Shown: piece after piece, positions 556 through 20,000 of the stretch | How positions within the stretch are numbered: the first letter of the stretch is position 1 | Layout: each line of letters starts with the position of its first letter | Assembly: GCA_002245135.1 (NCBI GenBank) | Contig: NGBS01000587.1 | Coordinates: forward strand, 244,059-264,058 | DNA length: 20,000 bases | Direction: 5' to 3' | DNA from: Proteromonas lacertae | Taxonomy: Eukaryota | Notes under the pieces: generated by a model | The model's input: the letters and a program-made list of their open reading frames with translations, nothing else | What the model was told of the DNA's origin: nothing | Databases searched by the model: none | Position numbers and translations under genes: made by a program

Positions 556-1845
556 ATGTTATTTTATTTAATATTGCTGTTATTCTTTGTCTGTGAAGCT
601 TTTGCACAGGGTGCTAAAGAATATGAGAAAATGATAAATTGGTTGAACCAGAATGGCGGTAAAGTAAACTCATTAGCACTAATGCCCAGTGGTGGAAGAT
701 ACTTTTTATCTTCAACAGTTAATAGAGATTATGGATCAACAGTTTGTGAAATTCCTATTGATTTAGTTATATGTAGAGAGACAATTCTAAAATACCCATT
801 ATTTAAGGAATATAAAGATTTAAACGACAAAGCATTGATTATGGCTTTTATACACTATGCTTATTATTACAACAAAAATACATCCTTTGCACCAATTATG
901 AATACATTAAATCCAAACATTAGAAGTCCATTTATTTATTCTCAAGAGAATAAAGATAAAATAAAATCTGTTTTACCAATGTTCGACCAAAAATTTAATG
1001 AATTAAACAAAAATCTAAATACTGTATATGGAACAATAATTTTGAAACATCCAGAAGTTTATGGCAATCTATCAGATACAGCAAGAATAACTAGCGAATT
1101 AACCTTCGTAGCAACGGTTACAGAAGTTCAAACATTCTCAGATATACAAGGATATGAAGGGATAGTATTTATTCCAATATTAGCAGATTCAAGAGAAGTT
1201 TACAGTTCATTTACTCCTTTCTATAACAAAGAAACAAAGACCTTTTCATCTAAAATAAGGTTTACCCCTCAAAATGGTATGATTGGTGTTACTCATTTTA
1301 ATGATCCTATGGAATGTGATATTGAATCGTTTATTTATTTCAACCAAATTCCTGATGTTAGTATTGCGTGTGCTGATATTGTTATTTTACCTGAATATAG
1401 AGAAGGTGAAAGAATAGTAGAATCTAAAAGAAGAAGAGCGTATGTGAGATTAGGTATATCAGATTCAGTAGAGAATGTTTTATATAAGTTTAGATTATCA
1501 ATTCATAATCCTTTACCTAACAAACTATTAATGTATGCTAGATTATATTCTGCTAATGAATTTAATATTGATACAATTGTAAATGAACCATATCAACCAG
1601 TGTCAATAGAAAATGAATATAGAGCTTTGAAATTCTTAAGAAGAGAATTAATGAAGATTGAAGATGGTTTTCCAACTACTTTAGAGTATGATCAGAAGAA
1701 ATTAAGTGAAGTGGAAGTAAAAACTGTTTATGATTTAGAAGATAGAGAGACATTGAAGTTTGTAGTTGGTTTTAAAACTACAATTCGTCAAGGATTGAAT
1801 GAGATTGAGAAGAGATGGGAAAGATTATTATATTCTGACCTTTAA
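556..1845 (+). CDS. Signal-peptide-containing Rubisco-LSMT/SETD3-type SET-domain-like protein with C-terminal Rubisco-LSMT substrate-binding domain; probably catalytically degenerate
   Basis: Intronless 429-aa ORF. Hydrophobic N-terminus MLFYLILLLFFVCEAFA; LSMT-like N-SET segment (MINWLNQNGG...GRYFLS...VCEIPIDLVI); VFIPILAD in place of LvPlaDmlNH; C-terminal LLMYARL...PVSIENEYRALKFL...FPTTLEYD pattern. Confidence 0.75.
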   Translation: MLFYLILLLFFVCEAFAQGAKEYEKMINWLNQNGGKVNSLALMPSGGRYFLSSTVNRDYGSTVCEIPIDLVICRETILKYPLFKEYKDLNDKALIMAFIHYAYYYNKNTSFAPIMNTLNPNIRSPFIYSQENKDKIKSVLPMFDQKFNELNKNLNTVYGTIILKHPEVYGNLSDTARITSELTFVATVTEVQTFSDIQGYEGIVFIPILADSREVYSSFTPFYNKETKTFSSKIRFTPQNGMIGVTHFNDPMECDIESFIYFNQIPDVSIACADIVILPEYREGERIVESKRRRAYVRLGISDSVENVLYKFRLSIHNPLPNKLLMYARLYSANEFNIDTIVNEPYQPVSIENEYRALKFLRRELMKIEDGFPTTLEYDQKKLSEVEVKTVYDLEDRETLKFVVGFKTTIRQGLNEIEKRWERLLYSDL

Positions 1846-1928: not shown

Positions 1929-4175
1929 TTAAAACACATTTTTCTTTACTAAAGAATAGATTGAAATGAATGGATAGAAAGATATATCATAATTTGTGTC
2001 ATTTGATTCAATTATCCTTCTAACTTGTTCTAAAAGAGAAATATTACATTGACTTTGTATTGGTTTAATATTTATTTTTTGTATGATTGAATGTAAATTT
2101 TGGTGAGATAAATTGTGATGAATACAAACTAAAATCCAGATTAATGATGTAACATAATCATTTACAATGTTGTTCTCACTGAAATAGTGGAATATCTCAT
2201 TGGCTGGACCTACTGATTGATTTATATATGGTTGTAACAGGACATTAACCATTCTTCTCCAATTAAGACATTGCTGATAATAGGGTAATTTCAAATATGT
2301 CAAAATTGCTTCTTTTATCATCATATTCTTCGAATAACAACTAATACAAGCATAGAATGTATTTATATCAATCTCATTATCCTTTTGTATTTTTCTTAAT
2401 ACTTCATCTATTTGCTTCTTTGGATTTTTCAAATATCTAATTATTTCTATTCCCATGACATTTGTAAGTGTAATGTTATTTATATAATATAAATCATATA
2501 AATATGAAGAATAATTCTTGGCTGTAGCTTTTACAATCAAAGTATGTAATCTTTCAGAAATATATAATTGAGTGGATAGAAGGTTTGTATAAATAGATAA
2601 CAAATCAGCATCATTTAATAAACGACTCAATCTATCATTATAACATTAATATATTGATACAATAAAAAGTATTCTTCCAGAAAATTGGTAAGAAATCCAT
2701 AGGGAGATCCTTCATTAGTAAATGTTTGTGTTAATTCATATATAGCTTGATTTACATCAATATTCTGAGATATATTGTATAGATGAATTGCTTTTCTATT
2801 CTGAGTATGAATATCACCTACTGATATTTCTTTAATGTAATTCAAAAACTATATGTTTTTATTATTATATGAATAAAATACTTTTGAATTAATTTGTTTA
2901 TTGTTTATAGTGTTGATTTGAACTAGCATTTCGTAGAAGTTGTTTATAAATGGATCAAATTCCATTGAGTAGAGTGTATTTAGATACTCTTCAGCTACAG
3001 CTGGTTGATTATTCTATTTATAATATATAAATCATAATAATTAATACTTCCAAAGCTAATGAGAATAAAGCACAAACTTTTCTTTGATCCTGAACTGGAG
3101 TTGTTCCTTTTATTTTTGATAGTAAAACTAAACCATATTCTGGATTTCTCGCTCTAACTGATCCTTCTAGGAAATAAGATAATAATGAATTTGGGTCAAA
3201 ATATTTCCCGTATTTGATTATCTCAACTATTGAGTTGTGAATCATTAGATTATCAAACTAAGAATAATAAACAAAATGAAATAAATATATCAATACAAAC
3301 ATCTTTGGAAAAACTGTAATAAATTTACTATTCTTAAAATGAAAAGATTTAAAATCACTCAGAAGCATATTAATATATTTATATAAAGGAGGAAAAGTAG
3401 ATGTTGCTTTAAGCAAACTCATTATTAGTATTTTGGTTGGTTGATATCCAGCTTTTTCTATACAACTTATAAAGTTCAAGTGAATTATCTGTAGTTAATG
3501 GATCTGTCAAATATTCTAATATTAAATCTTCAATTTCTGTAAAAGATGCAATAGATCTAAGATTTTCTGGCTTGTAAAACGTTAATAACGAAAAATCATC
3601 TATATAATAAGAGTTTGATAAAATATACCATTTAAATTACATTGCCTAATCATTTTATCCAACATTTTAAGAGTCACATGTACTTTAGGCAATAATAATT
3701 TTGATATTTCAAATTCAATAGCTTTTACTGATGCTATAAAAATTGATTCAAGAATAATTGGCGGAATTTGAATGTTCTGAAGTATATTTTTGTATAAATA
3801 GCATGTACATTCTGGCTTATCATAATAAATAGCAGAATTAATAAAATTAAACGTTCTATTAGCTATAATGACAAAAAACCTATACGATTCTGAATTCACT
3901 TCAATTTTTTGAGCTATCTTTTGTAATTGTGCATTAATTTCATTCTGAGATAGGTTAGAAACATTCTTTGTGATAATACTACAGATTATAGATAAATAAA
4001 TACTCTAATTCCAAAATTGGTTGTTCATTCCATTTATTCACTATATAGTAATTGTACAATAATATAATACTTGATCTTTTCAATACTGATTTACAAATCT
4101 ATGCATCCAAGTAATAAAAAATAAAGCAAATACATTTTTGGGAGAGAATAGAATGTATTTATTTATTCGAAACAT
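1929..4175 (-). CDS. Degenerate pentatricopeptide-repeat (PPR)-like helical-repeat protein, about 663 aa, 9 exons; one extra A at 3453-3457
   Basis: ATG at 4175. GTAT...TAG introns at 4133-4099, 4070-4041, 4003-3979, 3628-3600, 3296-3258, 3047-3014, 2881-2849 and 2660-2632 join five ORF-track fragments in frame, apart from one +1 indel. PPR-like segments include SLELYKLYRKAGYQPTKILIMSLLKA and INTFYACISCYSKNMMIKEAILTYLKL. The N-terminus is basic with no acidic residues (MFRINKYILFSPKNICKSVLKRS). Confidence 0.7.
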
Positions 4176-4394: not shown

Positions 4395-6330
4395 TTATTT
4401 CATAAATTCATCAAATAAAGTGCCATTGTTACTACTATTAGAAACATTACCCATATTTTGATAGGTGTTAGTAGTAACATTACTATTATCATCAGGAGGA
4501 GGTGATCCAGGTGGTGTTCTAGGTGGCGGTACAACTCTCGATTTATTACTACTACTACTATGATGTTTAGAACGACGAGTAGAAGATGAACTTTCATTAT
4601 TACCATTCCTACTATTAGAATGATGATGTCTATGATGAGATGAAGATCTCTCTGAATGATGATCAATCATTGGATGTTGTTGTTGTTGTTGTTGATTTTC
4701 ATAAGACATATTTGGGTAATATGATGTAGAAGGTGGTGGTATTGGTAATGGTTGTTGTTGTTGTTGTTGCTGTTGATTATATTGATCATAATAACCTCCT
4801 CCTCCTTGATATCCAGGTGGTGGTGGTGGTGGTGCTTGTTGCATCATTGGAGGCATATTATAAACATCATACTGACCAGGTGGAGCAATGTTTGGATATG
4901 ATGAATATGGATCATTATACATCATTGGTAGGTTGTTGCTGAGGTTGTTGTATATAAGGAGGTTGCTGTTGTTGCTGCATTATAAAAGGATCATTACTAT
5001 AACCATATCCTTGCATTGGCGGTGGTGGTGGTAATTGCGGCTGCATTATTTGTTGCATCTGTTGTTGTGGTTGAATTAATTCTTCAGCTCCATGTGCATA
5101 ATTACACATTTTACCTAATCTACAACGACCTTGTCTGTAATAAATACATAGTTCAGTTTTATAACCCATTGCTGGCATTTTATTGAATCTATCTCTTTGT
5201 CTATCATCTGGGATATATGGAAATCTGTTTTGAGTTTGTCTTGATGATTGATAATTGTTAGTATTGTTTCTATTATTATTATTATTATTTCTATTTCTTT
5301 CATTTGAATTATTATTATAAGAAGTTGATGATGATTTTGGTTTTGGTTTATTCTCAGATGAAGTTGATGATTTTACTAATTTTCTTTTCTTTTTCAATTG
5401 ATTATCACTATCACTATCACTATTTCTCAATAGAGATTCATTATTTAATTTACTCTTTTTTTGTGTGTCAGATAATTTCCTCAATTTTCTTTTTACTTTC
5501 TTTTCACTATTATTATTATCTTCTTTTTCTTTTGCATTTTGCTTATGTTTCTTCAATTTTGGCTGTTTATTCTGTATCTGTCTATTTATTCTAATTTCAT
5601 CATCATCTCCACTTTCACCTTCTTCTTCTTCGATTGTACTTGAATCAGAAGCTTCTATAAACTCATCATCATATTTATTTGTTCTATTCTCCTTTCGTTT
5701 TTCTGCTTTTCTCCTCAAACCATCGAACTGTACAGAACATTCTGGACATGCCCAATGTCCTTCAGGTAAAAATGTCATTTTTGGAATAAAACAACTTCTA
5801 TGAAATACTAAATTACAAAATTCACACATTAACACTTCACCACCTTCATTACATAATTCACACACTTCATTATAACCTCCATCCCACAGTTCCATTAGCT
5901 TTAAATCATCATTAGATGCTTCACTTCCGTGTGGATATTTTAAAAATGCTTTTCTTCTACTTCCATCATGTCTTAATGCGATTGGTATTTTCTTTAGATC
6001 ATCTTGTGTCAGTTTTTCTGGTACAAGGTTTCTTACGAATGTATAACCTTTATTTGGCTTTTCTGGTTTGTCTGTATTATTGTCTTTATTCTCTACTAAT
6101 GGTTTATCTTTCAATTCTGTATTTTTCATATCTGTTTCATTGTTCGATTGTTCTTTTACTTGAACATTCATTACTGGTTCTTCTTTATTTATTAATTCAT
6201 CTTTTTTCTCATTCTTTATTGGCTGCGTATTTGAATCAGTATTAGAAGTTTGTTTATTATTATCTTCTGGATTTTCTGCTTTTATAGGTTGATTATTTTC
6301 TTGTTTTTTCAATACTTCTTCTGTTTGCAT
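4395..6330 (-). CDS. PHD finger + CCCH zinc-finger protein with acidic/basic and Q/P/Y/H-rich low-complexity regions; ORFs 4915-6330 and 4395-4925 are probably one gene
   Basis: C4HC3 PHD CELC...CEFC...FHRSC...WACPEC (~5740-5865) and CCCH YKTELCIYYRQGRCRLGKMCNYAHG (~5090-5165). The same Q/P/Y/M-rich composition continues across the frame break at ~4926. Confidence 0.8.
4676..4832. repeat. Coding trinucleotide microsatellites (TGT)n and (GGT)n encoding poly-Q and poly-P on the minus strand
   Basis: tgttgttgt runs near 4676-4694 and 4752-4775, and a ggtggt run at ~4816-4833, are directly visible. Confidence 0.85.
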
Positions 6331-6473
6331 TCTTCTTCAAGATAAAAGACTATTAATATATTTTTGAATAATTAATCTTTTTACTACTGTTTTATAGTAG
6401 TGCTATAATCTTGAAATGCAAATAAAAATAGGTAAATCTGTTTAGAACTATTAAAAAGTTCAAAATTCAATTT

Positions 6474-6983: not shown

Positions 6984-7096
6984 TATATTATTTTATTTAA
7001 TCATACTCTTGTGTGTGTTATTTTATAAATAAAATCCAAAAAATGGCAGAAATTTTCAAAAGAATTAAGGCAGTACTCATTCTGAGTGTTAAAAAA

Positions 7097-7623
<527 letters not shown>

Positions 7624-8159: not shown

Positions 8160-11100
8160 CTAAGAATTTTCATCAGTATTAATAATATCTGTTTCATATC
8201 CTGGTACATTAATCAAAACAACACTATTATCATTCCTCCTTTCCACTGGCATACTAACCATGGGATATTTATTATTTGGATTTGCATTAAGATTAGTTTC
8301 TAAATGATTAGGCAAAATATTCAAGCTATGGTTATGAGGTTGTCTAAGTGGAGTATTATTTCTATCATAATTACTCTGGTTATTTTTACTATCATCCATA
8401 AGTCCAGGTTCTGATTGAGATAATACATTATATTCCATTCCAAGGCTATTATTTACAGGAACCATATCTTTATTCTGTTTCACATATATCTTTTGATTAT
8501 TGACTAATTGATCCACATAAGGTCCATTTCGTTGTGCTATTATATTTGTAACATTTGTTGTAGTTGTTGTGGTAGTTGCTGTGTCTGCATTTGTTTCATA
8601 ATCAGTTCTTCCAGTTGTTGGTTTACTTCCTGGTGGAGATAATGGCCTGATTTTATTGGCTAAATGAATTGATGAATATACATCCTTTTTCATTCCTTCT
8701 TTTTCTTTATTACTACTATTATCTGAAGATGGTTTCATTGATGAATATTCTCTTACTATTTTATAGAATTTTGGAGTTATTATAATCAATGTTATTCCAA
8801 TATTAATCAACACTATTCCTATACTCTCTAATAAGAATTTAGCTGCTGGAGATGATGTTAATGTCATTTCAATAGCGAAGTATAGAACAAAACACACAAA
8901 TAAACATCCAATACATGCTGTTAATGTGTTTGAATCATTATAATCATCAACACAATTTCTAGTTGTATAGGAATAGTATAAACCTAATACAAAGATAAAT
9001 AATAGGAATATAAAAAACACTGCATCATATACAACTGATCTATTACATGTTGGAATATAATATGAAACTAAATAATTACCTTCATCTGTTGAAATTTTTT
9101 CTTCATATTTCGAGAATGGATATATTAATCCCCATATTAATGATAATACCACAAATATTGATAAATATAAAAACAATCTCATAAACACTTTCTCATTATT
9201 TATTCTTAACCTTTTCATATCTCTATTGTTATAAACTGCATGAATTCTCCAAGTTCTTAACACAATTATACAAGAGTAATTCAATAATAATAAATAAAAG
9301 ATTGCTTGAAATACCATACACGTTCCATCACTATATTGAGATATATTCATTGGAATGATTGACCATAATGCTATTGTACCACTGAATAAGAAATATATTA
9401 CAAATGTATGACTTGTTGCTCTTATTATTTTGAATCTTCTGAATTTAATTATAAATCCAATTACTATATAAATTGCTGTTGAAACTAGTACCATTACTAC
9501 TATCACAGCTATTAAACTATCACTTGGTAATTCATATCTTAATAACAATGGTCCAACATTACATTCTGCTACATCACCATAATAAACTTCTGGATGTTTC
9601 ATTACAGTAAATTTCGTATCATCAACCAATACTGGTATTCCTGACATACTTAATTCGGCTAATTTTATTACTTGAATAAATTGATTTGTTACTGTTCCTT
9701 GCTTTGTTCCTGAGGATGTATCTATTAATATTAATTGACTAGCTCTTCGAATATAATCTAAGGAAATTACATTATCATTCACATCTAAACCATCAGATTT
9801 CATCAGATTTCTGCTTTGAGTGTATGAATTAATGAATATTTTGTAAATACTTTCAAAATCAGATATTGACTGAGATATAACATCAATTTTACCAACATTA
9901 GTATTTACATAGTTTTGGAAATTAATTGAGTTTATATTGGTATTATCATTCAAATATGTTCTAGTTATTATATTTCCATACAATCTAGGCATTTTATCTG
10001 TTCCTAATTCATATTCATCAACATAATAAATAATTTGAAGTGCTCTAATATAAGATATTTGATTGATGTAAATCAAATCTTCAAATAATGTTAATTCATT
10101 ACCATTTAATGAGTTTAAAATTAGTATTGTATCATTCCTTATAAATTCTTTTATAAACATTACTGTTTCATTTATTAGTTTAATTCTTTCACTATTTTCT
10201 ATACCATCAAATACAGGAATTGCATATGTTTTAACAATTACACTATCTTCAATATATACTTTTACATTTTTAGTTATATAAGCTATTAAATCATCCATAT
10301 ATCCACTTATAACTATACTTCCTTGTATTAATAACATTATATTCTTAAAACCTAATCTTTGACTGAATTTCAATGATGGCTCAATTCTACTCTTCATTGA
10401 TGCAGAAATAAAGAATATATATTTATTACATATTGGCGGATATACAAATACAGTCGAATAAATCAATTTGTATTGCATTTTTCTTTCATAATTGAGTAAT
10501 AAATATCTAATCACATCCATAGAATTTGATGTAAATAATATCTTATATTCATTGTTAACTTCAAACAAATTATCAAACACTAACTTGTCCTTATTTTCAT
10601 CATTATAATATGGAAATACTTTAAATTCAATATGAACATTTGTTGAAAAATTGAACTTGTTATTATCTCTAATTAATGAATCTATTAATATTAATAATAT
10701 ATGTGATAATTTCTTCTGTTTTTCTTTAGAATAATCAAGCAATAATCCTACTTTAACATTTACCTCTCTCGTTGTACATTTCTCAATATATTTATCATAA
10801 TCTCTTGGTGCTAATTGATTAGTTACATCAATAATTCTTTCATTTTCATACTCACAGTTAAATTCTGTATGGAAATAATACCTTTGAATGTATAAATCAC
10901 CTCCTAAATACATCGTTACTCCACTGTTAGAATATTGATGATTTATCAACTGAGTGATATAATCTCTCGAAGTATAACTAGATAATAATAAATTTTTATC
11001 ATTATTACTAGTGAATCTGTTTAAAACTAACTCTAACATCTTAAATGCTGAAAATATATCTTCTGTTGAAGAAGAATAGTAATTATCATAAGGGAAATAA

Positions 11101-14100
11101 TCTTTACAATATTTTTGAAATGTTTTTGTTCCATTTGATAAGAATGAATATGAAGAATTCTGTAATGCTGGTGTATAGGTTACTATTGATTTTACATCAC
11201 ATAAATATTTTTTATAAGAACCATGATTTGGTATTTCCATTAATGAAAACATATTGTATATAATTATATCTTTTATTTTTGTCAATAATCCACTTTCATA
11301 TATATACTTATATTCTTCTCCAACATCATTTTTATATATTGAAACAATTATATAACACTTATTCTTAGATGATTTACAATAATCATAAATACTATTATAT
11401 AACTTTATTTTCTCACTCTCATCTTTATATAACTCATCATATACATTGAATTGTTGATAATAAAGGTTTGAATCATTCAAACTTTTATCAATATGATCTA
11501 TTAACAATTTAGACATGGGTGAATAATTATATAATATAATCACATCATTAGATTCTCTTATAAATGATCTTTCATGTAAATATGAAATAATTGCTAATGA
11601 ATTAGTCATATGAATGACATTATCTCTACATACTATTTGAGTATCATATCCAACTGTTAAATATAGTGTATCATTATAAAGATTAAGTTTGGAAACATCA
11701 AAAAATCCAAAAGATGTAAATACTATATTAATCTTATTCTTATGCATTTCATCTAAATACTTTTGTAGTTCATTTACATCTCTCTTTTTCATATTATGTG
11801 ATTTTACAGCTAAATATGTATTACTACTGAATGAATTTACATCATTATAATCATCTACTAGTTTGACTAACAATATAAACCGTTGAATTCCATTAGTATA
11901 ATAATCTTCAATAGTTAATGGTAATATCAAACCAATGTAATATAAATTCAATTCTTTATTACCTGAATGACTATTCATATCATCATTCCACATACAAGCT
12001 GTAAGTTTATTATTATTTCCATTATTAACACCATCAAAGTCATAATTATCATCCATACTAAATAATAAAGCTGCATTTGGTGAAAATGAATATTCTATCA
12101 ATTCTCCATTGAATTCATAATAAGACATTGTAATTGATTTTGTCAAATAATTGTTTCTTTGCATATATATTGCATTTCTATTATCCATTCCTTCATTTTC
12201 ATAAGAATAACACTTAAAATTATATACATGTTCTCTAAAATGTTTATCATTTGGGGTTAATCTGCCATATTCTCTTTCAAATTCGTACCAGAAATATAAT
12301 ATGTTCAATTCTGATACAACATCTCTACTAAGTTCTTTATCCAGCAATAATGAAGTATAATCAAAATCATACAATACTTTGGAAATATAATTTTCTAAAT
12401 CATCATCATTATTAGAGTCATATTTATAGTTATTCTTCTTACTACTAAACTTTCCATTCAAATTCCAGAAATGAGGTAAATATTTATATTTCATTGGTTT
12501 ATTTTCAGGATGTTGAGACATATAAAATATATTATTTACATCTATTGAATTGGTTGTTAATAGTGTATTATTTATATAATCCAGAATGTAATCTAAATCT
12601 TCAATATCACTTGAATCCATCATTATTGCAACTTTATAGTCAATAGATTTTTCTAATATTCCATTCAATTCATTCTTACTTTCTTTAATATCATCAAATG
12701 TCATTGAATATATTTCTGGAATTAATAAATACTGTCCTGTCTTCTCAAAATATTGATGTAATTTAACATAATCATTATCATGAATCACTACTAATATGAA
12801 ATATCTAAATATATTATAAAATGTTTCTAAAACAACAGGAACATTACTCTTTGGCACAAATGAACCATGATAAACATTTTCAAAACAAAATGTCTCATTT
12901 ACTTCATTGATTATTGTCACTTTGAAGTTTTTTCCTTCCACCAAATTGATAAACTTTTTCAAACATTCACTTGGTAAGTATAAATAAACAGTTGAATCAT
13001 ATTTGAATTGTTTAATTATATCTTCGAAATCATCACATTCTGATTCAGTTCTTAATAAATAGCTTCTTATATCAAAATAATCGTTTGTGTCTTTTCCTAA
13101 TATATTAAATCGTTCTTTAATTGCATGGAACATTCCATAAATTTCATAATCTTTGTCACTTCTAATCATTATTACTGTTTCTATTACAATTACTGGAACA
13201 GTATAAATATATTCTTCTTTTGTAAAATCACACATTTTCCCTTGGTTCAATTCCCAATTAAATGCATATGGATATTCATTGAAATAATACCTCTTTAATA
13301 TTTCAACTGTATTATTTGCATATACTCTAGCCAATTGAAAATAATTGAAAATGTTATTATTTGATGCTAATTGAGTTACTCCTTCATGACTATCAAAATC
13401 AGAATAATAAATACTTGATAAATTGAATTGAGTTATTTCATTGTTTCTATTCATAACTATATCTGAATCTTTCATTTTTTGGAATAATTTATTTAGTATT
13501 ATAAATGCCATAAATATATTTGACATTTGATTGAATGGTTCAGATATCATTGAGTATTCATATAAGTACTTTAGAAACACTTTGTTCATATCACCTTCTT
13601 CATTATTCTTATTAAAATAACCACCTATTATATCAATTCTATCTTTCAAATAGAATGGCATTGTTTTAACATTCTTTTCTGTTAGTAATAATGCTATTAT
13701 TCTCCACTTATCTCTATCCAAATTTCTTATATAAAACTCATATAAAACTGATTGAGAATCTCCTAAATCTGTTGCTAAAAATATTACTCCAGCAAATTCC
13801 TCTATTACTCTCATTGAATCATTCATTTCTGTTGCATTTGACACATCAACACTAATTGATGGAGATGGACGATCTAGTCTGTCTTTTAACAATTTCTCCA
13901 ATATATTCTTTACATCAATCGTTGATTGATCATTTGAATTATAAAATATATATGATATATTAGTAAGATATCCATTCAATGCATAGTAATACATTGAATT
14001 GAAATAATATTGACTTGGAACTCCAGATGTTATAATTACGTTCTTATAACATATTTCGCCAGTTACTGGTGTAGTAATAAAATATAATATATCTTTATGA

Positions 14101-17100
14101 TCATCTTTTATCTTATTGATTATTATCTTCATACATTCTTTTGAATTACCACTTATAACTATCTTAAATCCTTCTTCTATCGCTTGATCAATTAATGATT
14201 CACATGTTGTTGTTGGTGAACTTTCTATATCAAATAACTTGTAAGAGATTTGATAGTTTTCATTTTCATTCTGTACATAATTATATCCTGCAATGGCAGA
14301 TAGATAATTTGAAATATCATAGTAATTATCATTATGACTAATAGAAAATACCAAAGCAATTTTTATTTTCGGTACTTTTGTAACTCCTTCAATATTATCC
14401 AATATTCTATTCTTTGTATGTTCTACAATCGGTTGTAAATCACTAACTTCACATCTTTTACCACTGTATGGAGGAAATGGTTCAGATTTAACTGGCGATG
14501 AAGATTTAAATACAGTTTTAAACTTCAATGTAACATTATCACTTTTATCAACTTCTTCTAATTTTATGAAATAGAAATATCCTTGAAAATAATGATTCTT
14601 TCCTATATAAACTATTCCAGCTGGTGTTACAATAGGAATCTTATAAAATGTATAAATCAATTCACTAACTTCATTACTGTGTATAGTATGTGTCGAATAT
14701 CTTAAGAACAATGGTATAGTATATAAATTATAGGTTAATCTAGAAAGAGTTATATTTTTACCATATTTGTCATAATATCTATTCAATATTTCATAGGTTA
14801 TTAAATTATCTTCTCCTTCTTCTTTAGCTTCAGTTGGATTAAAGATTGTAAAGAAATAAGTATCTATCGTTGGTTGTACTTTGTCACTTGCATTAAATTT
14901 GATTAAACCTGGATCAGTATTTAAACATATAATTTTGCTTGAACTTCCAACCAAATTATAGGAATATAACTCTGTTAATAATGAACTAATTTGATTTGGA
15001 GATACAATTGTAACAATACAACTACTGTGACTTAAATATTGATTTAATGAACTTAATATATTATAATATTGATTAGTATTATCACTAATTGCGAGTTTAT
15101 AACTAATTTCCATTCCATTTTCTACAAACATATTCTCATATATTTCTAACAAAGTTTTATGTTTTTGAGTAACACTATATAACATTAATATATTCTCACA
15201 ATTATTGATCATATATGATAGTCCAGGTTTCATTGACTCATAGATACTTCCACCATAGAATAATATATTATTATTATTACATTTTGCTATATATGTATTA
15301 CTTGCTACAATTAACAATATTGAATTATCATTTTCAATTTCATTTGATATTATTGTTATTAATGGATCACTTAAATAACCAATTAATATTCTAACACCCA
15401 AATCCATCAAATGTCTGAATGATATGATGAAATCTGTTTCATTTGTGTTGGATGTATATGTTAATGATTTATAACTAACTGTAACTCCTAATATACCTCC
15501 ATATTTATTGTTTATATTATCAATTCCACTTTCAAATGATGTTTTTACCATTTCTCTTTCAATTCCAAATGTTTCATCATGTATTAAACCTAATGTGAAT
15601 AAATTGATGGGTCTTAAATCTGGTTCATTTTCTTCAGTGAAATTACAATAATTTCTCATCACATTTGAATCAACATATAATATGTTTGATGTTTTAGTTG
15701 TTGAAACATAGCTAATTACATTAAACTGACTAATCTTTACTACAACTGAAGGTAAACGTTCATAAAGATTAGATTTCATAGAATTAATTCCACTTACAGT
15801 ATCAAATTGTGTAGTTAACATTGTTCTTTGTATTGTATATAAATCATATGGATTATGAGATGTGATCTGATCATGGAAATTGAAAAATGCATCAGCTGCT
15901 AATAACTCATATATATAAAATATCTTATCTTTTCTATAAATTGTATGATAGATATTATCAAATAAATTACTTCGTTCTGTAGATAAGAAGAAATCAAATA
16001 TTGTGTAAAAATAAATATTGTAATTTCTAGCGGATATAGCATTATCATTAAAGAACGATGTTAATGCATAGAATTGATAATTTCCTCCTAATTGCATAGT
16101 AGAAAAAAACATTCATAATTTGATTGGTTTTTTCTGCAATATTATATGTATTAAATACTATAATATTACCACCTGTTGGCATAAATGAATATATTTCTTT
16201 GATTATATTATCTATTGAAGCAGTATTATTTTCAATATCAATATATATTACATTTTCAGAAAATGAAATTGATTCTTTTATATTGTTAATGATTTTCACT
16301 TTATTTGGTATATCACTATGTAGAATTACTAATTTTTCGATTTGTAGTATGAACAAAGTTATACATTGTTGTAATCAACAAATCATTTGCAGAATATGTA
16401 AATACTCTTGGACTACATTTCTCCAATGAATAATAATATCCAATATACCACAATTGCATATCATATTGATCTAATTTCTTAACAATATGATCCATCATAA
16501 CTCCTCCTAATACTCCAAACACATGTTTGATATTATATTTAGTATGAAATTCTTCAAATATTTGACTTATCTCTTCTTCTGTATTTGCATGTTTTACTAT
16601 TCCTTCATATTGAAATTTTGTATCAGCAACATTATTAAAATAAGTTCCCAGTGCATATATTATCCTAGAAACCATTCCAGATTCATATTTTAACTTTTCA
16701 CATCTTACAAACAACATGCCAAACCTTACTTTAATTCTATTCGTGATGAATTCGTTTGTAAGATTACTGTTTGGAAGCAGATGAAGTAGAAGAAGTTGTT
16801 AATATTGTATCATATTTACTACAATCACAAACCTTGACTATTTTCCTCAATAAACATTATTGCAGGTAATGGATAATTCAAATTACTTGTAGTAAAAAAG
16901 TTATTATTACCATTTAAATCTACATATATTATCATAATAGTTAAATAATGAGATAATTGGTTACTGATTGAAAATGTCAATGGAGTATCTAAACCAACAT
17001 TTAAATTCAGCTTTTCTCATATTTATATCACAATTCTTTTCTTCTAAACAATTTGAATTCATATTTATCGATAAAGTCAACATTGATTGTGCATAAAATA

Positions 17101-18690
17101 ATGGATATAATAGATAATTATAATCATAATAAATATCTTCAAATTCTGTAATACGATCTAAAACAACATTAACAAACTTTGATTCACTTTCTTTTATATG
17201 ATCTGAAATAAACATAAAATTATCTAATTTTGGATTATGTATTGTTTTAAGGCTTTTAAACTTCATTAATGATGGTGTATATGAAGGAAATGGAAGTCTT
17301 GATGATTGAAATTCTGCTCCAACTTCTAATATTTTTTCATCATCATCTAAATTCACTAATATTCCACAATTACCATCTGGAAATTGAGTTTTTATATCTA
17401 TAAATATATCACTTATTGATTTTGTATTGATTGAAGTTCTAACTACTTTCATATCTGTTTGATCTAACTTCTTCAGTGTTTTTATTATGTATTTATACAT
17501 TTCATCATCATTCTCATCGTCTATATCAGTTATTATGTAAAAACTTTTCAATTTTGAGTCTAAAGCATAATAGATTACAGGAAAAATAGAGTTGAATCAA
17601 ATTGAAGTTTGTATAGAATAGATATGGTGAACAATCATTTTTCTCATTCAAATACAAATCAAATGTTATTATTTTCTTTCTACTGGTTATTTCTATCAGT
17701 TTCTTCATCTTCATGTAATTATCACCAGCTAAGAATGCGATTGGATTATATTTCTCTATTAATTTTTCCACTTGAGTCTTTAACTTCTCAGGATTATTAC
17801 TCAATTGATATTCTATTACTCTATATCTATACTTAGTATCATAAAACGAAACAGACATTAAATTAGTCACTGTAAATAATGAATTCATTAACAATCGAGG
17901 AATTGTTTCAAATATACTGATTATTACTATAGTTTTACCTTCTTTTGTATAATTACTATTATATTTACTCCAATCACATACACAATTCTCATTTACTGTT
18001 GATGAAGTGTGAGGAACTGGAAACCATTCATAATTGTAAATTATCTTCTTTATTTCTTGAATATGGTAAAATCTTTTGGATCAACTGTCTTGCATAATTT
18101 TGTTATTAATTGTAATGTATTTTCTCTTGTATATTGTACTTTATATTTTTCGCTGTAAATATCTAACGATGGTAAAATAGATAGAATATTATCAGGTGTT
18201 ATTGATGTTAAAGTAGTGAATATTTGATATGCAATCTGAGTTGATAAATATGCAAAATATGCAATTTCAGTCATCAAGTTGTTTGGACTTATTATTTTGT
18301 ATGTATCACATATATGATTATTATTTCCACATTTACCATCAAAATACATTATAGTGTAAAAATCTTTCCACTATTAAAATATAACATATATAATATATAT
18401 AAATACAGAATTATCATCAACATAATCAATATAAGATAATCCCATTATATAAACTTTAAATTGATTTTCACTATATCCTTTACGACTGTATTGTTTCATA
18501 AATTCAGATGAATATGGTGGAGCTGTTATTGATATAATTAATATATTATTCTTTGTCTTATATCCATCGATTGTTGTGATAATACTTTGAACAGAATTCT
18601 GAATATTATCCAACTGAATTATTAAAGATTCTAACAGAGTATTATTCTGTTTGATTGTATTTTCTGCATATGTTTTAAGTGTTTTTGCTC

Positions 18691-18725
<35 letters not shown>

Positions 18726-20000
18726 TTTATACTCAGTTTTTGCAGTAATTAATATCACATCTTTCCTATATTTCCCAAATTCAACATCAAATTTAAGATT
18801 GATGGAGCAGTTAAACCTGTATTAAATACTCTTGGATGACAATACAAACCTGAAAGATGTCCGATATTGAAAATGACAGGTAAATCATCACGATTTTCAT
18901 GATAGATATCTAATTGAGGTATATCTTTGTTTATAATATTTCCATGTGAATAATAAATAATAACCTTTATTTTATTCTCTACATAATAATCATATTGTTC
19001 AGCAGGAGTATGTGAGTAATTTGAATCTACCAGTAATATCAGCCTTTTATTACCAACTTTCTCAGATTATTTGCATTTGCAGATATATATACACTGTTGA
19101 ATATGGGAATGATATATTCAGCTTTCAATGACTATCAGTAATTAATCCTATAAAAAAAACATCTTCTACCTCTAATTCACCTATTTCATTACATCTATTC
19201 TGTTCTATTACACTAAAATCGTCATATGCCTCTAAAGGAAAGTAATTTCTGAAATTGTGTATAAATTTGATATCTCCATTTGCTTGCACCTCTCCTAAAT
19301 AGGAACTTCGCATAAAATACTGATTTGTGTATAAATATATAAGATCCTCTGAAACATATGCATTTATTCTTTTAAATGTCATATTTTGAATAAAAACCGA
19401 TACAGGTACTTTGTATAAACTATCTATACACTGTAAAATCATTTTCAGGAATATTCCACTGATATACAATGAATCAGTTAAATATTCACCTGAAGCTAGA
19501 TTTAATGCTGTTAAAAATGCTTGATCTCAGGAGATGGATAATCATCAAATATCCTGAATATATATAAGCACCAGCGAATAGAGTAGTATCTTTGTGAGTA
19601 AGGTATTCATCAGCACTTAGAACAGCTATTTTATACCCTTTAGCAGCAACATTGTATTGGTTAAAATATTGGACTATTTTTATCTGTTCATCATACTTTC
19701 TATAATAATCAGCAATTGTAATGGCAGTTGTTGTATGTTCTAAGTTCTTCAAATATTTTTCAGCATCTGCAATCTCCATTCTATTGTTTAAAATCTTTAT
19801 ACCAAGCAGCGTGTAAGTTCTGACCAATCTATTATAATCATCTTCATTATTAGTCAATATAATTGATTTATATTCACTATTAACTATAAATGAGTTGGCT
19901 ATGATAATAATAAAGAGATTAAAGCATACCTTGATAATCTAAATTTCTGATATTGATTGAATTAATGAGATTAGGGTTACACATTGTTCAATATATTGAT
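8160..20000 (-). CDS. Giant class C (GABA-B-like) GPCR with at least 9 tandem PBP type I / Venus-flytrap modules; 5' end lies beyond the window; part above 16100 broken by about 13 small indels
   Basis: Uninterrupted 2650-codon ORF (8160-16112) ending in a 7TM region and cytoplasmic tail. Upstream fragments continue the same ~1.2-kb module periodicity and carry GTAT...TAG introns at 19929-19899, 18732-18690 and 18406-18371. Confidence 0.85.
8760..9520 (-). other. Class C GPCR seven-transmembrane domain (7tm_3-like)
   Basis: Seven hydrophobic segments with class C hallmarks: RRFKIIRATS in ICL1, Cys at the top of TM3, VLRTWRI at the TM3 end (cf. AKTWRI), Cys in ECL2 (IPTCN), TRNCVDDYNDS in ICL3 (cf. 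TRNvp..FNES) and ITPKFY in TM7. Confidence 0.92.
9560..20000 (-). repeat. Protein-level tandem array of ~400-aa modules: approx. >20000-19190, 19155-17970, 17935-16820, 16740-15645, 15600-14450, 14370-13230, 13200-11990, 11945-10775, 10760-9560
   Basis: Each complete module begins with a hydrophobic strand (FIGLI, IVIIS, FGMLF, LGLIH, IALVF, IETVI, IGLIL, VGLLL), contains a C-x-x-x-V/I/L motif, and ends with an N-containing hairpin motif and a terminal Cys. No obvious DNA-level identity between modules. Confidence 0.8.
18691..18723. repeat. (TAA)11 microsatellite forming most of a 43-nt intron
   Basis: Directly visible. On the minus strand, GTATAAATA(TTA)11G runs from donor to acceptor, and its removal joins ...AKTE|AKTLK in frame. 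Confidence 0.9.

Follow-up and report, generated by a model that had tools for sequence, protein, structure and literature searches.

A predicted G-protein-coupled receptor (class C) of Proteromonas lacertae with at least eight UrtA/AmiC-type modules in one chain

Introduction

[quoted passage not shown] We read its product as a sensor of small molecules that couples to G proteins; its GABA-B-like seven-transmembrane (7TM) domain bears at least eight, likely at least nine, binding modules of the bacterial UrtA/AmiC type and is switched via the module nearest the membrane; to this reading as a whole we give about an even chance. Its basis is the domain order, one frame that runs through modules M1 to M7 and part of M8 in a related protein (P0001), the predicted fold of M1 and M2, and class C motifs that are intact. 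Class C receptors are understood as carrying one Venus flytrap (flytrap) module per chain, the closure of which is relayed to the helices within a dimer.

All positions below are those of the window, and modules are numbered from the membrane outward, M1 being membrane-proximal. The receptor gene lies on the minus strand (8160..20000) and encodes about 3,915 residues within the window; its 5′ end falls outside, as do the remainder of M9 and any signal peptide. Its core is an intact open reading frame (ORF) of 2,650 residues (8160-16112, minus strand), in which the 7TM domain stands C-terminal to five complete modules of about 400 residues each and part of a sixth. The G+C content of the window is about 25%.

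The seven-helix domain

The 7TM domain occupies 8769..9515 (minus strand; ORF residues 2200-2448). It is recognized by the Pfam family 7tm_3 at residues 2201-2448 with 91.4 bits against a cut-off of 33.5 (E 1e-25), and seven hydrophobic helices span residues 2200-2445, which bears out the class C assignment made in the preliminary description of this DNA. The closest solved relatives by sequence are GABA-B subunits (E 4e-9), which also hold ranks 1-12 in a Foldseek search with an AlphaFold2 model of M2, M1 and the 7TM domain. The available text of one structural account gives an ionic lock (K/R3.50 with D/E6.35) and an FxPKxY motif as class C features, and describes a stalk formed by the linker and the β-sheet of extracellular loop 2 (ECL2) (PMC8163086). 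In the ORF, R2286 aligns with K3.50 of GB2 and is thus R3.50, the aspartate of YNDS aligns with D6.35, and transmembrane helix 7 (TM7) reads TPKFY, keeping the PKxY of the motif and not its F. Across 12 aligned 7TM rows, K or R occupies position 3.50 in all, D or E position 6.35 in 10 and the PK of TM7 is found in 10; the cysteine pair joining TM3 to ECL2 (C2265 and C2356) is invariant (12/12).

Between the terminal cysteine of M1 and TM1 lies a linker of only 13 residues (9516..9560, minus strand), predicted to form a β-strand and modelled beside a long ECL2 that is itself predicted as a β-hairpin, an arrangement that resembles a GABA-B-type stalk. As the preliminary description had held, a nine-cysteine domain is absent, again as in GABA-B: Pfam gives no NCD3G match, and a single cysteine (residue 2184) lies between residue 1896 and TM1. 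The metabotropic glutamate (mGluR), calcium-sensing (CaSR) and taste (T1R) receptors differ in that NCD3G precedes their TM1. The cytoplasmic tail (8160..8756, minus strand) comprises 198 residues of low complexity, with a threonine run and an asparagine-rich part; it has no Pfam match and aligns end to end with that of P0001. By sequence, then, every class C feature sought in the ORF product was found (7tm_3, seven helices, lock, PK motif, cysteine pair), and the bilobed ligand-binding fold of the class is present in M1 and M2 by prediction and in the other modules by profile homology.

Reading frame of the gene

Upstream of the ORF the frame is broken, and the course of the gene there can be followed with P0001, a protein of 3,387 residues from a Logan contig that is 69% identical to the ORF and was the sole match among 4,475 candidates in a search of a protein collection. 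P0001 spans the window from 18349 to 8166 in one single frame. Because it reads across the breaks in this way, they are single-base frameshifts, likely introduced in assembly, and not the boundary of a second gene. A frameshift-aware alignment places seven such shifts between 18063 and 16098, with no in-frame stop and 510 of 791 columns identical to P0001. A separate gene above 16100, which would have lowered the module count, was rejected as far as 18349, where P0001 is continuous, and the claim of a single gene of more than 3,900 residues stands: about 3,915 are traced without a stop inside the window, and the frame continues past its end.

Above 18349 the frame was traced by hand in a script, with switch points chosen by the analyst, on the assumption of three predicted introns and six single-base shifts. 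The introns, all GT-AG and on the minus strand, are of 36 nt (18371..18406), holding in-frame stops and lying just upstream of where the called ORF of P0001 begins; of 43 nt (18690..18732), with an ATT repeat; and of 31 nt (19899..19929), excision of which joins two frames with no shift needed. The intron of the neighboring ubiquitin-L40e gene served as the model for their size. Together with the low G+C content, intron lengths of 31-43 nt are in keeping with protist DNA. A further candidate intron (16831-16768) was rejected, its sequence being coding in P0001.

The 13 single-base frame changes, all between 16098 and 20000, might also mark a decaying pseudogene in this genome, or a gene of which only the 2,650-residue part is made, the full chain being functional only in relatives. 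We hold this to be very improbable. The seven changes fixed by P0001 leave no in-frame stop in about 750 codons at the identity given above, although 6.5% of random substitutions give stops, and the 7,950 bases downstream, those of the intact ORF, contain no frame change at all. The changes fall into two runs, seven deletions and then six insertions, and 11 of the 13 (six of the 13 places being analyst-chosen) are at base runs of at least three, against 948 of 2000 background places. The neighboring gene for a protein with PHD and CCCH fingers bears a similar shift near 4932, likely another assembly error. We infer that the frame changes of the receptor gene are likewise likely to be errors of assembly rather than real.

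Eight modules and a weaker ninth

Plain self-BLAST finds no internal repeat in the ORF; the period of about 400 residues is visible only with profiles, and the 20-30% global identity that the modules of the ORF show among themselves was set aside as composition-inflated. When per-position profiles built from relatives are compared, seven of the ten pairs among M1-M5 reach 94-98% HH-align probability, against at most 6.7% in reversed controls (n=49). The three weaker pairs (39-74%) all include M3, the most divergent module, which still pairs with M4 at 96.7%. Together with a hidden Markov model (HMM) of M1-M5, these comparisons uphold the five complete modules and partial sixth that had been described in the clean ORF. 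That HMM, built from 37 M1-M5 modules, detects the held-out M6 and M7 of P0001 at 20.5 and 24.1 bits, where 200 shuffles and 20 reversed modules give 7.8 bits at most, and it also picks up the upstream fragments of the window in register and in the correct order. The profiles of M6 and M7 themselves, of two rows each, reach at most 48% with HH-align. Read across introns and frame changes, M8 scores 44 bits, which none of 500 shuffles attains, with an HH-align probability of 95%. For M9, represented by the last 263 residues at the window end, no shuffle in 1000 reaches the score without composition correction and 84 in 1000 do with it; the HH-align probability is 6%, and both module cysteines are in register. 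On sequence statistics, eight of the at least nine modules claimed earlier are thus supported, and the ninth, of which the window holds only a part, is plausible but weakly supported.

All modules lie on the minus strand. M1 (9549..10760) carries cysteines 1895 and 2184 and an insertion common to the M1 of relatives, and M2 (10764..11945) carries cysteines 1495 and 1779 and an additional conserved pair, 1579/1586. M3 (11982..13214; Cys 1076 and 1373) and M4 (13218..14375; Cys 688 and 961) are followed outward by M5 (14436..15614; Cys 278 and 554), which gives a Peripla_BP_6 match at E 1e-6; over ORF residues 192-519 this family scores 29.2 bits, under its cut-off of 31.7. M6 (15645..16770) is read across frameshifts near 16098, 16336 and 16772, and M7 (16820..17960; Peripla_BP_6, E 9e-4) across others near 16836, 17002 and 17582. 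M8 (17975..19170), the C-terminal third of which is covered by P0001, holds two of the predicted introns and shifts near 18063, 18762, 19058 and 19126. The likely M9 (19190..20000), its C-terminal two thirds only, holds one intron and shifts near 19524, 19547 and 19983. Linkers of 6-28 residues separate the modules. One cysteine near module position 120 and another at the module end are present in all five complete modules of the ORF and all seven of P0001, and the mid-module cysteine recurs in 36 of the 41 modules of the ORF and its relatives.

Relationship to UrtA and AmiC

The AlphaFold2 model of M2, M1 and the 7TM domain, built from 12 alignment rows, has a mean predicted local distance difference test score (pLDDT) of 79.8 and a predicted template modelling score (pTM) of 0.73. 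In fold searches M1 best matches UrtA (7s6e, Z 36.0, root-mean-square deviation (rmsd) 3.4 over 373 residues), followed by 8hic and 7s6f (Z 35.6); AmiC reaches 32.6, the Leu/Ile/Val-binding proteins 32.1 and animal flytraps at most 28.9. M2 likewise matches type I binding proteins, with Z 31.3 to 4zpj (rmsd 3.3 over 352 residues), so both modules are predicted to adopt the bilobed fold that had been proposed for the array. The model of M5, M4 and M3 is far poorer (pLDDT 51.7, pTM 0.31), and the fold searches made with it covered M4 alone, which gives Z 17.2 to LivJ (1z15; rmsd 5.0 over 284). By sequence, the counterpart of M4 in the relative P0003 matches three UrtA structures and no others (E 2e-9 to 2.5e-8), and through it the mid and terminal module cysteines align with the same pair in three cyanobacterial UrtA structures. 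Single-sequence searches of the PDB with M4 and with the M9 fragment gave chance-level matches only.

Family profiles point the same way for the relatives. In a Pfam scan of 25 matches, six of the eight closest relatives (P0001-P0008) passed the Peripla_BP_5 cut-off, and four of five relatives scanned match the UrtA family TIGR03407 (E 4e-10 to 1e-14, 39-54 bits), as none of 13 window pieces does. The modules are of the UrtA/AmiC branch of bacterial proteins (Peripla_BP_5) and not of the ANF_receptor flytrap type of GABA-B and mGluR, so that the earlier wording, flytrap-like, holds for the bilobed type I fold and not for the branch. They share with UrtA and AmiC that fold and with UrtA the cysteine pair. 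Even so, they are not a UrtA: the best TIGR03407 score, 54 bits, is far under the cut-off of 492.75, and UrtA and AmiC are free, single-module bacterial proteins, whereas here the modules are chained on a eukaryotic receptor and the urea pocket is lost. Descent from UrtA nevertheless appears probable.

Relatives and age of the array

ORF residues 1390-2470, compared by phmmer with 1.84 billion representatives, gave 768 matches at E ≤0.001, of which eight (P0001-P0008, 1,155-3,387 residues) align across nearly the whole query. None is a named protein, and all come from Logan contigs except one short ENA member. By position, each carries between 2 and 7 modules; these counts are minima, since several of the proteins begin mid-module. 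Among the matches listed, 11 of 150 bear a module of the receptor family, and a profile search returned P0001 as the only family member. None of five proteins of the window is present by exact sequence in the protein collection, and scans of metagenome contigs for the receptor locus found none (0/361 and 0/210 pattern matches).

When 41 modules, cut beforehand into groups from the collinear alignment, are placed in a quick tree, each of the five positions M1 to M5 gives a single group that spans the proteins (SH-aLRT 93-99); M6 and M7, with two rows each and long branches, do not. A recent repeat expansion was rejected, the modules clustering by position and not by protein. Because they do so, the array is, by sequence, old and ordered; it predates the divergence of these proteins to about 25% identity and has kept its order since. 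The whole chain is also kept, because every module from M1 to M5 is 66-71% identical between the ORF and P0001 and the 7TM domain 82%.

When 135 class C domains are compared, the 7TM domains of the ORF and P0001-P0008 fall into a single clade (support 100, with a long branch and biased composition; 19 of 154 proteins were omitted for a short 7TM). Those of P0009 and P0022, which also bear UrtA-type modules, branch apart from the other nine, and a single origin of all UrtA-bearing 7TM domains is not supported by this tree. P0009, P0011 and P0022 combine a UrtA-type module with 7tm_3 on a 7TM branch apart; as the end part of a second module is present in P0009, tandem modules may occur there too. 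The family members P0008 and P0168 have lost the acidic lock residue of TM6 and the PK motif, score only 22 bits with 7tm_3 and are possibly non-coupling partner subunits. Other unusual class C architectures among the phmmer matches are giant TIG-repeat ectodomains on a class C 7TM in P0086 (3,288 residues, Rigifila ramosa by source) and P0036 (1,865 residues), an ANF_receptor-7tm_3-lipase 3 fusion in P0032 (1,860 residues), and VWA/Cache-7tm_3 fusions in P0028 and P0125.

Proposed mechanism and its alternatives

In the sensor that we favor, closure of M1 would move the helices through the short β-stalk. Because only M1 touches the stalk in sequence, M1 is taken as the likely switch, and the distal modules would act on the 7TM domain only through it. 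The conserved cysteine pair of each module may form a disulfide tying the module exit to the hinge. Because of these putative disulfides and the shortness of the linkers, the ectodomain would be a semi-rigid string, about 50 nm long if extended, at some 6-7 nm per flytrap module. Distal modules could provide either a wider ligand range or binding sites held away from the cell surface. As to origin, a class C 7TM may have acquired a bacterial UrtA-type gene by fusion, with duplication at an early stage, after which the pockets would have diverged from urea to other ligands.

Several observations weigh against the sensor. The available text of PMC10392092 lists nine residues of the UrtA urea pocket (W120, S122, Y141, Q144, E146, Y190, F192, N246, S274). 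Mapped through the M4 of P0003, a route that leaves columns beside gaps uncertain, they are matched in only 23 of 369 cells across the 41 modules, so the modules are not urea binders of the known kind; nor can a ligand be named from the pocket residues. In M1 (12% vs 24%) and M2 (14% vs 20%) conservation is lower at the pocket columns than elsewhere, and in M3-M5 it is average there (20-22% vs a background of 19-25%). Low conservation in M1 and M2 is what a receptor family with varied ligands would be expected to show, but it would fit lost binding equally well. When window modules are scanned singly, NCBIfam binding-protein families match none of five, and Pfam gives only ANF_receptor on M5 (E 0.009). 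The geometry between modules cannot be taken from the poor predicted model of M5 to M3. P0008, with neither lock nor PK motif, suggests that signalling is perhaps not needed in all members, and, as the available text of PMC4352136 argues, what distal domains signal may be dissipated along a linear chain of flytraps.

What the pocket has lost could instead mean that the modules are dead binding folds forming a long, disulfide-stabilized stalk, that is, an adhesion or mechanical receptor reaching through the cell coat and signalling on pull or on binding of a surface partner. This account is possible, if on the doubtful side. The UrtA pocket is gone and no conserved replacement pocket has taken its place; other class C 7TMs among the same matches carry long repeat stalks, of 14 TIG domains in P0036 and 23 in P0086; the ORF ectodomain holds 20 N-glycosylation sequons; and ligand-independent mechanical activation of GABA-B is reported in the available text of PMC12595035. 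A plain spacer, however, would seem to need less than the position-specific sequence types that are kept across relatives about 25% identical, and M1 and M2 are predicted to retain a complete two-lobed fold.

The fixed order of these position-specific modules, together with their short linkers, would also suit a multi-input antenna. In this reading different ligands would be bound by several modules of a tightly packed chain, probably a dimer, along which the module closures would travel to one 7TM domain and be added up there, as proposed for BvgS-type kinases. The joint model of M2, M1 and the 7TM domain (pTM 0.73) and the conserved insertion unique to M1, a possible docking site, are in keeping with such packing, and in BvgS homologues, which form an intertwined dimer, the flytraps number one to five (PMC4352136, in the text available). 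Packing from M5 to M3 is nevertheless not confidently predicted, and the distal modules show no conserved pockets, their pocket columns being at background level; we consider this summing chain quite unlikely. Pocket conservation as such would be compatible with sensor, stalk and summing antenna alike.

Comparison with known systems

GABA-B (GB1/GB2) is the nearest known counterpart: 7tm_3 is matched best by sequence and fold, the cysteine-rich domain is absent, and the short linker, long ECL2, lock and PKxY are shared. It carries one ANF_receptor-type flytrap, in contrast to at least eight UrtA/AmiC-type modules here, and the 7TM domains of the receptor family form their own long-branched clade. 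The receptor is not a GABA-B orthologue.

Tandem flytraps on one class C chain have a precedent in the GABA-B-like receptor v1g206093 of Nematostella, with two modules of GABA-B type as against at least eight of UrtA type (10.1101/621060, in the part available). In BvgS/EvgS kinases, with 1-5 flytraps, and in the receptor adenylate cyclases of trypanosomes, with 2, tandem binding folds are likewise joined to one output, but, by the accessible text of PMC4352136 and PMC6027212, they are single-helix proteins, not GPCRs, and have fewer modules. Prokaryote-type binding proteins joined to 7tm_3 are on record for non-animal class C GPCRs, with Bmp, OpuAC, SBP type II and Peripla_BP domains given in the available parts of PMC3251606, PMC5168858 and PMC3971589; the supplement of the last lists a Peripla_BP-7tm_3 architecture, in which repeats may be collapsed. 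Ectodomains of this group reach 1,600-1,667 residues (fungal ones up to 1,667; PMC3251606, PMC5168858), compared with more than 3,450 here, and the available parts of the three sources name no tandem array. At least eight UrtA-type modules on a GPCR are not described in the literature searched, which left out figures and most subscription papers and included PMC8687355, PMC10445921, PMC12965686 and, apart from its domain tables, PMC12716839. The earlier view that the architecture is undescribed is therefore to be narrowed: at least eight UrtA-type modules on one 7TM domain appear to be new, while tandem flytraps with one output, also on a class C receptor, and fusions of bacterial binding proteins to 7tm_3 were already known.

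Neighboring genes

Four further loci lie in the window. At 556-1845 (plus strand) an intronless gene encodes a 429-residue protein in which the substrate-binding domain of Rubisco LSMT is recognized (E 3e-11); its hydrophobic N-terminus resembles a signal peptide, unusual for the family, and three homologues at 70-74% are Logan proteins without names. Several open frames at 1929-4004 (minus strand), among them 238 and 134 residues long, have no Pfam match and are probably exons of one helical protein. In the PHD/CCCH-finger gene (4395-6336, minus strand), a Pro/Gln-rich tail resumes in another frame past the shift. The ubiquitin-L40e fusion gene (7095-7550, minus strand) has a 31-nt GT-AG intron at 7221-7191.

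Implications

If the array is what we take it to be, the fusion of a flytrap to a 7TM domain was made again, from a bacterial source (UrtA) other than that of animal flytraps, and then multiplied. The array also points to a receptor family, in an AT-rich eukaryote lineage, of which the collections searched contain no named member; as scaffolds, its modules are candidates for building new biosensors of small molecules. At its broadest, an interpretation that we regard as rather unlikely, this would be an old, unannotated protist GPCR family in which a bacterial urea-binding protein, gained horizontally, became at least nine different sensors chained to a single seven-helix switch. It would be a natural multi-input antenna, and no class C receptor seen so far would be longer; were that true, distal flytraps would signal by a route that no studied GPCR has. 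The array would in any case offer a natural test of whether distal flytraps signal via the proximal one.

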